From: an uncultured Arcobacteraceae bacterium
Lineage (GTDB): Bacteria > Campylobacterota > Campylobacteria > Campylobacterales > Arcobacteraceae
Reading direction: 5' to 3'
NCBI GenBank assembly: GCA_964022095.1
Contig: CAXHZO010000027.1
Span: 1 to 21,646 of the forward strand
DNA: 21,646 bases
Shown: positions 5,476-11,428 of the stretch, piece by piece
How the letters are laid out: each line of letters starts with the position of its first letter
Numbering within the stretch: position 1 is the first letter of the stretch
Translations under genes and position numbers: made by a program
The notes under the pieces: generated by a model
Told to the model about the DNA's origin: nothing
The model's input: the letters and a program-made list of their open reading frames with translations, nothing else
Databases searched by the model: none

Positions 5476-5595
5476 ATTAAATAATATTAATCTTCATTAT
5501 TTATTAAGGAATAAAAAACTATAATCTCTGCTTAATTTGTATTTGCTGTATATAAAGTATACAAAGATATATATATTTAATAGAGAAACTTAGTA

Positions 5596-5601
5596 TATAA
5601 T
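5596..5601 (+). promoter_or_regulatory. Putative sigma70 -10 box (TATAAT) for porin 1; predicted TSS ~5607-5608
   Basis: Perfect TATAAT 84 nt upstream of the ATG at 5685. An adjacent TATACT at 5602-5607 is an alternative. Confidence 0.6.
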
Positions 5602-5606
5602 TATAC

Positions 5607-5646
5607 TGTTCTTCTAAAATTTCGAAATATATTGCGCGAATATATT
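5607..5646 (+). promoter_or_regulatory. Porin-1 5' leader element antisense to the porin-3 ribosome-binding region, followed by a hairpin with GCGCG loop
   Basis: 5607-5628 TGTTCTTCTAAAATTTCGAAAT vs 11325-11346 TGTTCTCCTAAAATTTCGAAAT (21/22 identical on the + strand, while the genes are on opposite strands). Hairpin AATATATT-GCGCG-AATATATT at 5626-5646. Confidence 0.65.
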
Positions 5647-5684
5647 AAGAATAAAAAATAAAATTAGTAATTTAAGGAATTAAA

Positions 5685-6746
5685 ATGAAAAAAATTAGCT
5701 TAGTAGCTTGTGGCTTATTATTATCTTCTTCTATGGCATTTGGTGCAGATTCAATTGATGATGCATTTAAATCAGGAACAGTATCTGGAGATATCACATT
5801 ATATGGACTTCAGACTGACAGAAAAGGTGGAAAGAAAGATGTAGGTTTCTCTGCTGCAACTACTGGTTTAGCATATGAAACTGCATCATACATGGGTTTA
5901 AATGCAAAAATGGGATTCAGAGCAGGTCACGTATTTGGTAATTCAGCAGATTTTGAAAATGATGCATTAATGACTGAAGCATATGTTAAATATGCAACTG
6001 ATGGAATTGCATTATCTGTTGGTAGACAAGAGATTGATTTAGAGTGGTTAGGTGATTACAATGAGTCTGTAGTTGCTGCAATTACTGCAATTCCAAATAC
6101 AACTATTGTTTTAGGATATGTTGATAGACAAGCTGCTGCTGATGAAGATGAAATTGGTACTTTCGGTGAAATCACTGAAGATGGTGCATATGTTGCAGAT
6201 ATTAAATATTCAGGAATTGAAGGTGTTGAATTAAACCCTTACTTTTACTCTGCTGTTGATGTAGCTGATTTTTATGGTTTAAAAGCTGGTTTCTCAACTG
6301 ATACATTTGGTGTAATTGCACAATATGCAGCTTCAAGTGAAGAGACAGGACCAGATGGTTCAATTGCTAACTTTGAAATTAGTACAGGTATTGCAGATCT
6401 TTCTCTAGCAGCTGGTTATATCACAACTGATTCAGAAGGTGGTGTTGGTTCAATTGCTGCATATGGTGATAATGTAACTCCATTTGATAATGGTGATGAT
6501 AACTATGAAACTGATGCTGATACAGTATATGGTTCTGCTGAGTACTCTATTGGAAATGCAACTGCTGGTGTATTATATGGTGAAACTGAATTTGGTTCTT
6601 CTGAATCAAGTGAGTTAAATCTTTACTCTTCTTATGCATTAACAGATTCTTTATCTTTAGGATTATTATATGTTAATTATGATTTAGAAGGTTCAGATTC
6701 TTCAGATTACCAAGATTTTGCAGCTACATTAGCTTACGAATTTTAA
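5685..6746 (+). CDS. Outer-membrane porin 1 (Opr/OprD-like family), strongly acidic
   Basis: Signal peptide, then ADSIDDAFKSGTVSG, VGRQEIDLEW motif, alternating beta-strand pattern, C-terminal YEF; AAGGA RBS at 5674-5678. Confidence 0.9.
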   Translation: MKKISLVACGLLLSSSMAFGADSIDDAFKSGTVSGDITLYGLQTDRKGGKKDVGFSAATTGLAYETASYMGLNAKMGFRAGHVFGNSADFENDALMTEAYVKYATDGIALSVGRQEIDLEWLGDYNESVVAAITAIPNTTIVLGYVDRQAAADEDEIGTFGEITEDGAYVADIKYSGIEGVELNPYFYSAVDVADFYGLKAGFSTDTFGVIAQYAASSEETGPDGSIANFEISTGIADLSLAAGYITTDSEGGVGSIAAYGDNVTPFDNGDDNYETDADTVYGSAEYSIGNATAGVLYGETEFGSSESSELNLYSSYALTDSLSLGLLYVNYDLEGSDSSDYQDFAATLAYEF

Positions 6747-8029: not shown

Positions 8030-9190
8030 TTAGAATTTGTAAGATAAGTAAACTCTTGATCTATAATCATAAGAGTAGTCACCACCAAATGTTGAATACA
8101 TGATTTTTGTAGATAAGTTTTTATTAAATTTATATTTTGCAGTAATATTTGTTTCAGAAGAATCATCACCTCCATCTGTTTCCCAATCTGTATAAGAAGC
8201 AGATAATCCTAAACCATTACCAAATTTATATCCTAAATCAAGTTTATATGCATCAGTTTGCGCATCATAGTTTCCAGAAGAAATTGGAGCTGCCGTAAAG
8301 ATCTCATCTGCCCCAGAACCTATTCCAGATTCAATCTCTGCACCAGAATCAATTGTAGTATATGCAGCTGCTGCTGAGAAACCTCCAAATTTACCAGATA
8401 ATTTTACACCGTATTCTTTATTTTTTGTTTCTACATTACCAGCTGCACCATTGTCAGATTGGTAAGTTTGTACTTCTAATGTAATTGGAGATAATTTATA
8501 TGCTGCTTGTGCATAAAAAATCTTTGCATCATCATCTAAAGAACCATTTTCTGGTTTAGCTTGTAAATATTGAGCTTCTAATGTTAAGTTATCAATAGAT
8601 TTATTTTTTGCATAGATTGTATATGCACCATCTCCTGCTTGATCAAATTTAGGTACATTACCGTTAAGGTCTGTTCTATTTTGATATTTATCAACATATG
8701 CTACAACTAAAGTAGTTTGAGGTAAATCAGTATTAGCTAAAACTATACCTTCAAAAGATTGTTTTAAAATTCTTGAACCAGAACCTGCTACTAATCTAGT
8801 TTTAATATATTGTCTACCAACTTTAACTGTAGTATTTTCAATGCCATATGATAAAAATGCTTGAGACATAACTGAACCTGATACGTCCATATCTTTTGCA
8901 TAGTTACCAGCTTCATCATCAATATTTCCTACATGCGCAGTTTGAAATGTAACTCCAGCTTTTAATCCATAGTATGAACCAGTTGTTAATGATAAGTTTC
9001 CACCATTTGACCAAATTGAAGATTTTGCATCTGCACCTGACTCTTTTTCTTTTTGAAAGTATAAAGATTTGATTTCACCTTTAACTTTAGCGTCTGCGAA
9101 AGCTTGCGCTAAAGAATCAGCTGATACGGTTGTTGTTAATCCAGCAACTGCTAAAGAAGCTACTAAACTTAATTTTGCGATTTTTTTCAT
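8030..9190 (-). CDS. Outer-membrane porin 2 (OprD/Opr-like family)
   Basis: Signal peptide MKKIAKLSLVA, ADSLAQAFADAKVKGEIK, KVGRQYI...QSFEG motif, C-terminal YKF; AGGAG RBS. Confidence 0.9.
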   Translation of the reverse strand: MKKIAKLSLVASLAVAGLTTTVSADSLAQAFADAKVKGEIKSLYFQKEKESGADAKSSIWSNGGNLSLTTGSYYGLKAGVTFQTAHVGNIDDEAGNYAKDMDVSGSVMSQAFLSYGIENTTVKVGRQYIKTRLVAGSGSRILKQSFEGIVLANTDLPQTTLVVAYVDKYQNRTDLNGNVPKFDQAGDGAYTIYAKNKSIDNLTLEAQYLQAKPENGSLDDDAKIFYAQAAYKLSPITLEVQTYQSDNGAAGNVETKNKEYGVKLSGKFGGFSAAAAYTTIDSGAEIESGIGSGADEIFTAAPISSGNYDAQTDAYKLDLGYKFGNGLGLSASYTDWETDGGDDSSETNITAKYKFNKNLSTKIMYSTFGGDYSYDYRSRVYLSYKF

Positions 9191-9233
9191 TTTTAATTGT
9201 TCTCCTAAAATTATATATCAAATATGAGTTGGT

Positions 9234-10147: not shown

Positions 10148-11323
10148 TTAGAAAGTATATTGAACGTGGATTCTTCCTCTTTCTCCGTCATTAGAACCTT
10201 CATAATCAACTTGACCATATCTTAAGTAAGCCATGAAGTTTTTAGCTGGTTTCCAAGTTAATTGACCATATACTTCATCAGTATCATTGTCTAAACCAGT
10301 ATTAGTGTTTTCAAATGTTAAAGTATTGTAGTTTAATGCTACGTTAACACCAGACATTACATCTACATTTAAGTTAGTTTTGATTGTACTTCCGTCTTTA
10401 GTACCATTAAGTTGAGTTGCCCAACCTTGGAATGCTGCTTCTGCATCTGTATCAACAGCTACAAAACCACCTTTTTTACCAGTTTGACCATAACCAATGT
10501 TACCACCAACGATACCAGCTTTAAATTTAGAACCAACAAACCATAATTTGTTGTCTCCACTTGCACCATCAAATTCTAATTGAGTATATCTAGCATATGG
10601 AGATAGTTTTGCAACACCTGCATCAATTGAAGCTTTTGCTCCTACTGAATAAGAGTCAAATGTATCATTTACATCAATGTAAGTTGCATCTAAAGCAACA
10701 CCTGCAAACTTACTCATAGCTTGTAATACAATTAAGTTTTCTTTATTAATTTCATTAGCTGTAGCAGTAGCTAAACCTAATTTAGAAACTTGATCTCCAC
10801 CCATTAAGTTAGTTTCATTCATGTATGCTCCAACTAATGTTACAGGACCTAATGTAGTAACTGCAGCAATACCTGTACCTTCTTGAGTACCAGAAATTGT
10901 ATCATAAACATCAGTTTGTGGTACATTTAAACCTTGAGTACCTAAGATAATTGAAGTATTTGCAAATCCTGTATATGTAAAGTTGTTATATACAGTATAA
11001 ATGTCTCCACCAAAATAGTTAGTAACACCATTGTTACTTGTACCATCAGAAGTGTCAGAACCACCAAGGATAGCTCCAACGTAAGTATATGATAAGTCTT
11101 CAGTTATTTTAGAGATTAAACCTAAAGCAATTTTTGTATTGTTTTGAGTGTACTCATTTGAACCAGTGTTATTATCTCTATTTCTATCATCATATCTCAT
11201 AGTTGCGTAACCTAAGATAGATGTATTTTTAATTGCATCTTCTAATGCACCTGCAGATGCAGTTGTAGTGAATCCAGCTACAGCTACTGCTGCTACTAAA
11301 CTTAATTTTGCGATTTTTTTCAT
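10148..11323 (-). CDS. porA: Outer-membrane porin 3, Campylobacter MOMP/PorA-like major outer membrane protein
   Basis: Signal peptide KLSLVAAVAVAGF, mature start ALEDAIKNTSILGYATMRYD (compare the MOMP start LEEAIKDVDVSGVLRYRYD), C-terminal YTF, highly expressed-type codons (AAC/TAC/TTC), long leader and strong terminator. Confidence 0.8.
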   Translation of the reverse strand: MKKIAKLSLVAAVAVAGFTTTASAGALEDAIKNTSILGYATMRYDDRNRDNNTGSNEYTQNNTKIALGLISKITEDLSYTYVGAILGGSDTSDGTSNNGVTNYFGGDIYTVYNNFTYTGFANTSIILGTQGLNVPQTDVYDTISGTQEGTGIAAVTTLGPVTLVGAYMNETNLMGGDQVSKLGLATATANEINKENLIVLQAMSKFAGVALDATYIDVNDTFDSYSVGAKASIDAGVAKLSPYARYTQLEFDGASGDNKLWFVGSKFKAGIVGGNIGYGQTGKKGGFVAVDTDAEAAFQGWATQLNGTKDGSTIKTNLNVDVMSGVNVALNYNTLTFENTNTGLDNDTDEVYGQLTWKPAKNFMAYLRYGQVDYEGSNDGERGRIHVQYTF

Positions 11324-11428
11324 TTGTTCTCCTAAAATTTCGAAATCTTTATCAGTTTACCGGAGCGCGCGAACTTGTTTAAAACCATTGTTTCAAAACT
11401 CTACCGGTTTACCGTTGCGTCCATTCTA
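11324..11428 (-). promoter_or_regulatory. Porin-3 -10 box (TAGAAT, 11428-11423) and ~90-nt GC-rich structured 5' UTR
   Basis: GC-rich island in otherwise AT-rich intergenic DNA; ACCGG/CCGGU pairing; repeated CGGTAAAC; AGGAG RBS at 11333-11329. Confidence 0.6.

Follow-up and report, generated by a model that had tools for sequence, protein, structure and literature searches.

Conserved complementarity between a predicted porin mRNA leader and the start region of a second porin gene in the Arcobacteraceae

Porin genes and genome context

The window, which is the whole stretch of DNA analysed here, is one entire contig of 21,646 nucleotides from an Arcobacteraceae genome (G000) that is 99.99% complete. 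It carries three porin genes, called por1, por2 and por3 here, with the features listed in Table 1. The por1 and por2 proteins are 28% identical. The prfB gene and a cytochrome c gene lie between the porin genes, and three further porin paralogues are on other contigs of the genome.

Hfq (PF17209) is not found in the 99.99% complete genome, and control genomes matched. CsrA (PF02599) is not found in the genome either, and on this ground it was dropped as a candidate partner. RNase J and RNase III are both encoded. With these nucleases present and Hfq and CsrA not found, chaperone-free masking, duplex cleavage and protection of the por1 5′ end would be possible.

Table 1. Porin genes, promoters and leader features of the window
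Feature	Position	Strand	Basis or remark
por1, Opr-family porin, 353 aa	5685..6746	+	NF033922, 320 bits (cut-off 100)
por2, porin, 386 aa	8030..9190	-	Porin_4, Campylo_MOMP and OprD domains
por3, MOMP-family porin, 391 aa	10148..11323	-	Campylo_MOMP, 56.9 bits (cut-off 29.6)
17-bp palindrome TGTATA-N5-TATACA, candidate nitrogen-regulon operator	5547..5563	.	8 genomic copies; conserved upstream of por1
Predicted sigma-70 -10 box TATAAT of por1	5596..5601	+	TAnAAT 5 nt before the element in 17 orthologues
Candidate antisense element, predicted por1 leader 5′ end	5607..5628	+	Core 5607-5616 TGTTCTTCTA, usually to 5619
Hairpin of the por1 leader	5626..5646	+	Stems AATATATT / AATATATT, loop GCGCG 5634-5638, which with its flanks is complementary to por3 GUUCGCGCGC
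por1 Shine-Dalgarno AAGGAA	5674..5679	+	Seed pairs weakly, -3.8 kcal/mol
por2 ribosome-binding region	9198..9212	-	TGTTCTCCTAAAATT; complementary to por1 nt 1-15, one G:U
Predicted target site in the por3 leader, -23 to -2	11325..11346	-	Shine-Dalgarno AGGAG 11333-11329; unstructured 3′ tail
GUUCGCGCGC element of the por3 leader	11365..11374	-	Predicted unpaired; may be a second, kissing contact
Structured 5′ domain of the por3 leader, two nested helices	11353..11414	-	Predicted fold over aligned leaders
Predicted por3 -10 box TAGAAT	11423..11428	-	Kept in 16 of 17 por3 leaders located by pattern

A 22-nt match between por1 and por3 in antisense

The plus strand at 5607-5628 TGTTCTTCTAAAATTTCGAAAT and the plus strand at 11325-11346 TGTTCTCCTAAAATTTCGAAAT are identical at 21 of 22 positions, and the sole mismatch is T in por1 and C in por3. 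Because por1 is read from the plus strand and por2 and por3 from the minus strand, the RNAs would be complementary and the single difference would become a G:U pair. With the por3 ATG at 11323-11321, the match spans por3 −23 to −2, AGGAG included. It begins 5 nt downstream of the por1 TATAAT. The initial annotation had described just this, a 22-nt antisense match with G:U at its only difference, starting shortly past TATAAT and covering AGGAG to near the por3 AUG, and each of these points is borne out.

When up to 3 mismatches are allowed, the window contains the 22-mer at these 2 places only, a number that 0 of 100 dinucleotide shuffles reached. Over the whole genome of 2,565,272 bases, the sole further match is AT-rich, has 3 mismatches and lies on a different contig. 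A reversed-pattern control gives 5 matches genome-wide, hence the third match is noise. With two copies and one chance-level match, the 22-mer is no common dispersed repeat, the origin that the initial annotation had set against its own reading.

Outside the genus, por1 and por3 are unlinked, as in G007 where they lie at 668 kb and 374 kb. Thus, the complementarity is not a local DNA feature. Excision via recombination between the two direct copies was also considered and rejected, with prfB being inside the interval.

The por1 promoter and a candidate nitrogen operator

The palindrome upstream of por1 is centred about 52 bp before the predicted por1 start, and TGTATA-N5-TATACA occurs at 8 sites genome-wide. 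The seven other copies (C3:141788, C3:152883, C13:30006, C13:47250, C13:67696, C14:46842 and C28:9326) neighbour genes for the urea-binding protein UrtA (TIGR03407, 570 bits), the glutamine synthetase GlnA (TIGR00653, 630 bits), an ammonium transporter, a urease accessory-like ORF, an FNT (formate/nitrite-family) transporter and sensor kinases. Because these seven adjoin nitrogen-related genes, the palindrome is most likely a nitrogen-regulon operator, a candidate one for the Arcobacteraceae as read from its neighbours.

Two side observations belong to these sites. A gene for a Fis/NtrC-type HTH protein adjoins one of them. The ammonium-transporter leader (C13:67696-67780) has TTCCCT right past its TATAAT and a Shine-Dalgarno AAGGGG, a possible short hairpin that masks the ribosome-binding site.

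The por1 orthologues of four genera share one layout of the palindrome, 32 nt, TAnAAT, 5 nt and TGTTCTTCTA(AAA). In Campylobacter jejuni, a start-mapping report (PMC3847290) gives gnTAnaAT 4–8 nt upstream of 948 of 992 mapped starts, without a −35 box. By this spacing, the por1 start is predicted at about 5606–5610. Contigs of relatives from four RNA-labelled runs leave 5514-5691, and with it the por1 leader, uncovered; being contigs, they carry no start positions and weigh neither way on its transcription. Further −10-like AT-rich strings lie downstream of the por1 element. Only one of the 8 operator sites of the genome has the element, which is therefore no general promoter feature of the regulon.

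At the loci L078, L079 and L088-L094, por1 orthologues have Fur-box-like inverted repeats in place of the nitrogen operator. The same porin family thus seems wired to differing nutrient signals from one species to another.

Conservation of the element in por1 orthologues

Of the 184 family genomes, 23 contain the strict pattern TAnAAT-N5-TGTTCTYCYAAA, with 24 matches in all; its reversed-pattern control has 14. Upstream of por1 orthologues from four genera lie 17 of the 24; 5 are chance-like, and 2 precede a gene for a 224-aa outer-membrane protein. A looser pattern, in which positions 1 and 3–6 were fixed, finds 31 sites in 30 genomes, tallied by hand from the rows as 28 of exactly TGTTCTTCTA, 2 with C at position 7 and 1 with G at position 10. 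Positions 11–13 vary, with changes both compatible and incompatible with pairing.

Taken by protein similarity instead, 25 por1 orthologues divide into 11 with the strict element, 4 with near variants and 10 with other upstream regions. The conserved part is 10–14 nt long; only some lineages keep the rest (5620-5628, TTTCGAAAT). Around the core, the flanking leader sequence diverges freely. The initial annotation had looked to por1 orthologues for conservation of its 22-mer; this holds in four genera for the first 10–14 nt, and the full 22 nt is specific to the own genus (G000 and G001).

Distant por1 orthologues with the different, Fur-box-like promoter carry GCGAAC and TTCTCCTAAAA in the leader, both complementary to por3, and their genomes keep the por3 leader. 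The two complementary blocks come there in the opposite order, which argues for selection on each block more than for one colinear duplex.

The 224-aa outer-membrane protein gene (L027 and L047, in G075 and G085) has the operator, the −10 box and TGTTCTTCTAA(A/G)A with equal spacing, and the GCG hairpin described below is absent from its leader. Five more rows of the looser pattern show the same downstream letters as these two loci. A homologue of the 224-aa protein is not found in G000.

Accessibility and hairpin of the por1 leader

The predicted unpaired probability of por1 nt 1–13 averages 0.58 in G000. In 20 folded leaders the means range from 0.22 to 0.92 and are at least 0.57 in 16, so that by prediction nt 1–13 are mostly unpaired, and a consistent intramolecular partner is absent.

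A hairpin follows the element. In 15 of 17 distinct por1 leaders, a stem of at least 7 bp surrounds a GCG-containing loop; the stem sequences differ among lineages in a covarying manner while the loop is kept. The hairpins were scored singly against shuffles, each being equalled by just 0–19 of 300 flank shuffles. A MAFFT alignment set the loops of different size out of register and was unused. A GNRA-type or other special motif for the GCG loop was dropped on inspection by eye.

No terminator-like site is seen in 5607-5685, and the hairpin has no trailing T run. A stand-alone small RNA gene would have a terminator just past the seed and hairpin, which is not what the leader shows. A separate small RNA, such as the leader-derived sRNA suggested in the initial annotation, is therefore not indicated.

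Some repeated motifs in the leader can be noted for themselves. The 10-bp palindrome ATTTCGAAAT occurs at 5619-5628, 11337-11346 and C5:91244-91253, which are all its genomic copies and all porin leaders. Since its RNA is self-complementary, the leaders of por1, por3 and the contig-5 paralogue could pair through it in any combination of two, and as DNA it could be a protein site. The 7-mer GCGCGAA has 5 genomic copies, two of them being the por1 and por3 leader sites; at C13:46270-46300 it sits in the loop of a terminator hairpin after the FNT transporter gene. The tetramer CGCG is about tenfold under-represented in G000 (96 sites against 970 expected), and many of its non-coding survivors lie directly past TATAAT-like boxes, as if they were GC-rich discriminators.

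The por3 leader

The por3 leader (11324-11428, minus strand, about 93 nt) is nearly base-for-base conserved in at least four genera. The 16 aligned loci, from four genera, share the TAGAAT box and the two nested helices, and their leaders close with an unpaired tail whose last letters are GATTTCGAAATTTTAGGAGAACAAATG. The GUUCGCGCGC element is invariant in all 16 and lies outside the helices, and GTTCGCGCGC is invariant and unpaired inside the structured domain. In the helices, 96.6% of the alignment cells are paired, against at most 52.6% with the partners slid, and 3 pairs are changed on both sides. Another four genomes, found by way of named loci, keep the same leader.

A scan of the whole window against Rfam at E up to 1 gives no match to the por3 leader. 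From a relative, a 1241-nt contig in a run labelled RNA-Seq, a label that is itself a guess, spans 10160-11400, which is por3 with 77 nt of the leader. The leader may be regulatory or stabilising in its own right.

The por2 site and other candidate targets

The por2 site lies 8–22 nt upstream of the por2 ATG (9190-9188). The two regions por2 9161-9212 and por3 11294-11346 have a common ribosome-binding site, and their first 30 coding bases are identical. The proteins are otherwise unalike, with 47% identity over only 51 residues. This common 5′ end suggests gene conversion or a swapped 5′ end between the two genes.

Judging from its site, por2 is a likely second target of the por1 leader. However, the common 5′ end means that the por2 match is not independent evidence. 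The site that the initial annotation had pointed out as a further target is present, and its value as separate support is lost.

When wobble is allowed, the 13-nt seed has 20 genomic sites against 15 for the reversed control, and 9 of the 20 are at start regions, those of por2, por3 and about seven others. Because it fits seven start regions besides por2 and por3, specificity rests on the longer, genus-specific match. The 22-nt match is to por3 only. The other start regions are C3:154408, which from its N-terminus we take to be a urease-alpha-like ORF, and six more of the TTTTAGGAGAATA type; they are possible extra targets or simply strong ribosome-binding sites.

Predicted pairing and energetics

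An unbroken run of 12 pairs or more, beginning with por1 nt 1 on por3 −2 and extending upstream along por3, is predicted in 15 of 17 genomes. The contiguous pairs number 22 in G000 and G001, 17 in G181, 12–15 in 12 other genomes and 4 in G063 and G072. In the last two, nt 1–2 fail and nt 3–13 still fit por3 by eye.

Three kinds of difference leave the pairs intact where both partners were read. On the por1 side, position 7 is either U or C, and G replaces A at position 12 in G001; on the por3 side, U replaces the C opposite G2 in three genomes. Another kind breaks a pair, the por3 C to A at pair 2 in G063 and G072, which are one lineage. Because both partners are nearly invariant, these differences are suggestive and do not amount to true compensatory covariation.

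The 13-nt seed pairs with the por3 start region at a mean of −13.8 kcal/mol and with its own start region at −3.4 kcal/mol, being stronger on por3 in all 17 genomes. With this weak mean and with a consistent fold absent, the leaders do not behave as a cis-acting sequestration of their own Shine-Dalgarno. Cofolding 51 nt of the por1 leader with the por3 leader was tried in 8 genomes. In all 8, the gain over the monomers (−11.5 to −28.6 kcal/mol) exceeds the mean gain after nt 1–22 are shuffled (−3.2 to −10.4 kcal/mol, 20 shuffles each). These duplex energies leave out kinetics and ribosome competition.

A second contact may exist between the hairpin loop and the por3 leader. The GCGCG loop of por1 with its flanks could make 5–8 contiguous pairs with GUUCGCGCGC in 15 of 17 genomes. 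These 15 have the GCG-loop hairpin as well as the por3 GCGCGC, whereas the other 2 lack the one and the other; being close relatives, the 2 count as one event. Moreover, CGCG is self-complementary, which makes a loop contact indistinguishable from a motif with another shared cause.

Discussion

The por1 leader is complementary to the start region of por3, by a core that is conserved, lies at a set place behind the −10 box, is predicted to be accessible and to pair with favourable energies. We give about even chances to the reading that the leader embeds an Hfq-independent antisense element coupling the two porins, a reading made from the sequences and their predicted folds. Two marks of the antisense class are present: an extended complementarity to the Shine-Dalgarno and start of the target, with 22 contiguous pairs on por3 including one G:U, and a seed that is conserved in four genera and predicted unpaired.

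The initial annotation had taken the complementarity as a possibly functional one. That the core keeps a fixed distance from the −10 box in four genera, opposite a conserved por3 ribosome-binding site, argues for a meaning beyond a relic. Of its interpretation as a whole, the complementarity, the conservation and the predicted accessibility stand, a separate small RNA is not indicated, and por2 is no independent support.

An alternative that we consider improbable is that the conserved 5′ element serves por1 itself, the por3 complementarity being merely inherited from an old inverted duplication. As initially transcribed or 5′-terminal sequence, the element could set promoter escape, mRNA stability or translation, or act as a weak anti-Shine-Dalgarno on AAGGAA. 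Its fixed 5-nt distance from the −10 box fits such a role, and so does the ability of UUCUU to pair with AAGGA. The minimum-energy fold joins the 5′ end and the own Shine-Dalgarno in 3 of 20 leaders (L035, L073 and L086), and in the amtB leader of the same regulon, judged by eye, the pyrimidine run past the −10 box could pair with the own AAGGGG.

However, the own-start pairing is the weaker one in every genome compared, and the orthologues show no consistent intramolecular partner. The CUCCU-type sequences of the distant orthologues fit AGGAG-type sites and not their own AAGGAC. As for the inheritance, a pure ancestral relic should have decayed across four genera.

Quite improbable, in our estimate, is a DNA site that a protein binds whichever way it is turned, for instance the operator of a porin regulator at the por1 +1 and in the DNA of the por3 and por2 ribosome-binding sites, with the palindromes ATTTCGAAAT and GCGCGC being protein sites too. 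The initial annotation had itself raised such a site against its own reading. The restriction of the perfect 10-bp palindrome to three genomic places, all in porin leaders, and the near-palindromic GCGCG would agree with it. Yet the core TGTTCTTCTA is non-palindromic and is absent from the other 7 operator-bearing promoters, and the por3 copy lies about 85–95 bp downstream of the predicted start, which is unusual for an operator. Moreover, stems that covary around a kept loop are an RNA-like pattern.

Very unlikely is that the match has no function and is left over, by chance in G000, from recombination or gene conversion between porin loci. Porin paralogues do exchange 5′ ends, as por2 and por3 do, a contig-1 paralogue has a reversed string like a ribosome-binding site plus start upstream, and the full 22-nt identity is confined to the genus. 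Yet in 30 genomes from 4 genera the core stays in one place relative to the promoter while the flanking leader diverges. It also recurs in the leader of the unrelated 224-aa outer-membrane protein gene, and in relatives it does not seem to change at neutral rates.

Returning to the leader-embedded antisense element, its closest analogue is the MicF/ompC/ompF arrangement of E. coli, an antisense beside one porin gene with inverted homology to the mRNA of another. MicF depends on Hfq. In the por1 system, Hfq is not found and the apparent signal is nitrogen status, unlike MicF; the two sequences are unrelated. The Hfq-dependent class of porin-regulating small RNAs does not fit G000 in its Hfq requirement. 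The MicF covariance model has no match, and the whole-window Rfam scan at E up to 1 gave one unrelated weak match.

The micF report (PMC5415839) places the micF region upstream of the ompC promoter with 70% homology to the ompF 5′ region, and has its RNA cover the ompF start site and reduce the synthesis. MicF has a promoter to itself and is made as a separate RNA of 93 nt, whereas the por1 antisense would be the first leader bases of the mRNA itself, terminator-free.

In Listeria monocytogenes, the hly 3′UTR pairs with the prsA2 5′UTR and the pairing at the 5′ end blocks RNase J1, as reported (PMC8722363). On that account the likeness to por1 and por3 is of two full-length mRNAs for functionally linked envelope or secreted proteins, where an extreme 5′ end pairs, the por1-por3 pairing being a predicted one; RNase J is also encoded in G000. 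The outcome for that pair is a stabilised partner, and a ribosome-binding site is not covered, whereas the por1-por3 pairing would cover the partner's Shine-Dalgarno. Since the partner's paired region is the Shine-Dalgarno here, repression would be expected.

The Rli51 region of the Listeria mpl leader is, by its report (PMC11394854), a 5′UTR region acting in trans by base pairing. Rli51 accumulates as a short RNA through attenuation, whereas the por1 leader shows neither an attenuator nor a terminator.

As for the chemistry of the seed, the comparison is with RNAs that act without Hfq. RNAIII of Staphylococcus and RepG of Helicobacter mask the Shine-Dalgarno with C/U-rich seeds, which lie in the hairpin loops of dedicated RNAs and need no Hfq. 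The por1 leader is alike in having an unpaired pyrimidine-rich seed against a purine-rich ribosome-binding site in an organism where Hfq is not found. It differs in that its seed would be at the 5′ terminus of an mRNA; a loop-displayed version is seen only in distant por1 orthologues.

The mechanism may be pictured as follows. A nitrogen-regulon promoter would drive por1, and the leader would begin with a single-stranded stretch of 10–14 nt (22 in the genus) followed by the small hairpin. This 5′ sequence would serve as an antisense of the Shine-Dalgarno region of the por3 mRNA and of its partial copy in por2. Once por1 is transcribed, its 5′ end would pair with por3 from −2 to about −15 (to −23 in G000) and block ribosome binding on por3 and por2.

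The resulting duplex could be cleaved by RNase III. A loop-loop contact of the por1 GCG loop with the invariant por3 GUUCGCGCGC may start the pairing, and because the pairing would bury the extreme por1 5′ end, it could protect por1 from RNase J. In drawing this, we infer that the element is transcribed and that the RNAs meet, and likewise the direction and the sign of the regulation. The major-porin mRNA, being abundant, could equally act on por1.

As to origin, the por3 leader was probably copied in inverted orientation and the copy came to lie downstream of the por1 promoter, where it forms the por1 element. On contig 1, about 140 nt upstream of the porin at C1:357363 (minus strand), CATTTGTTCTCCC lies just past a TATAAA box. 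Its reverse complement looks like a ribosome-binding site of the por3 type followed by a start codon, and the string may be a second leader-embedded antisense element. Searched in the 184 genomes with 1 mismatch, the contig-1 upstream string TTGTTCTCCCAAAT gives matches at the level of the reversed control.

For the Arcobacteraceae at large, we offer a broader proposal only tentatively, as one that is rather doubtful at present. The mRNA of a nitrogen-limitation porin, and in some species that of a second outer-membrane protein, would be a chaperone-free regulator. A kiss between the GCG loop and GUUCGCGCGC would nucleate 5′-end pairing over the major-porin Shine-Dalgarno, giving silencing of the major porin and RNase J shielding of the inducible mRNA, a reciprocal switch made of mRNAs only that came about via inverted duplication of the target leader.

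In enteric bacteria, the porin balance is kept via small RNAs that require Hfq. To our knowledge the Campylobacterota have no Hfq, and we know of very little on how they balance their outer-membrane proteins. Our searches of the literature outside subscription journals returned nothing on RNA regulation of porins or on mapped starts in Arcobacter-type bacteria.

If the leader-embedded element acts as proposed, it would be a compact and conserved case of control between mRNAs, and the switch between porins would be linked to the nitrogen supply. It would also show the origin of a regulator, with the leader of the target copied in reverse behind another promoter.
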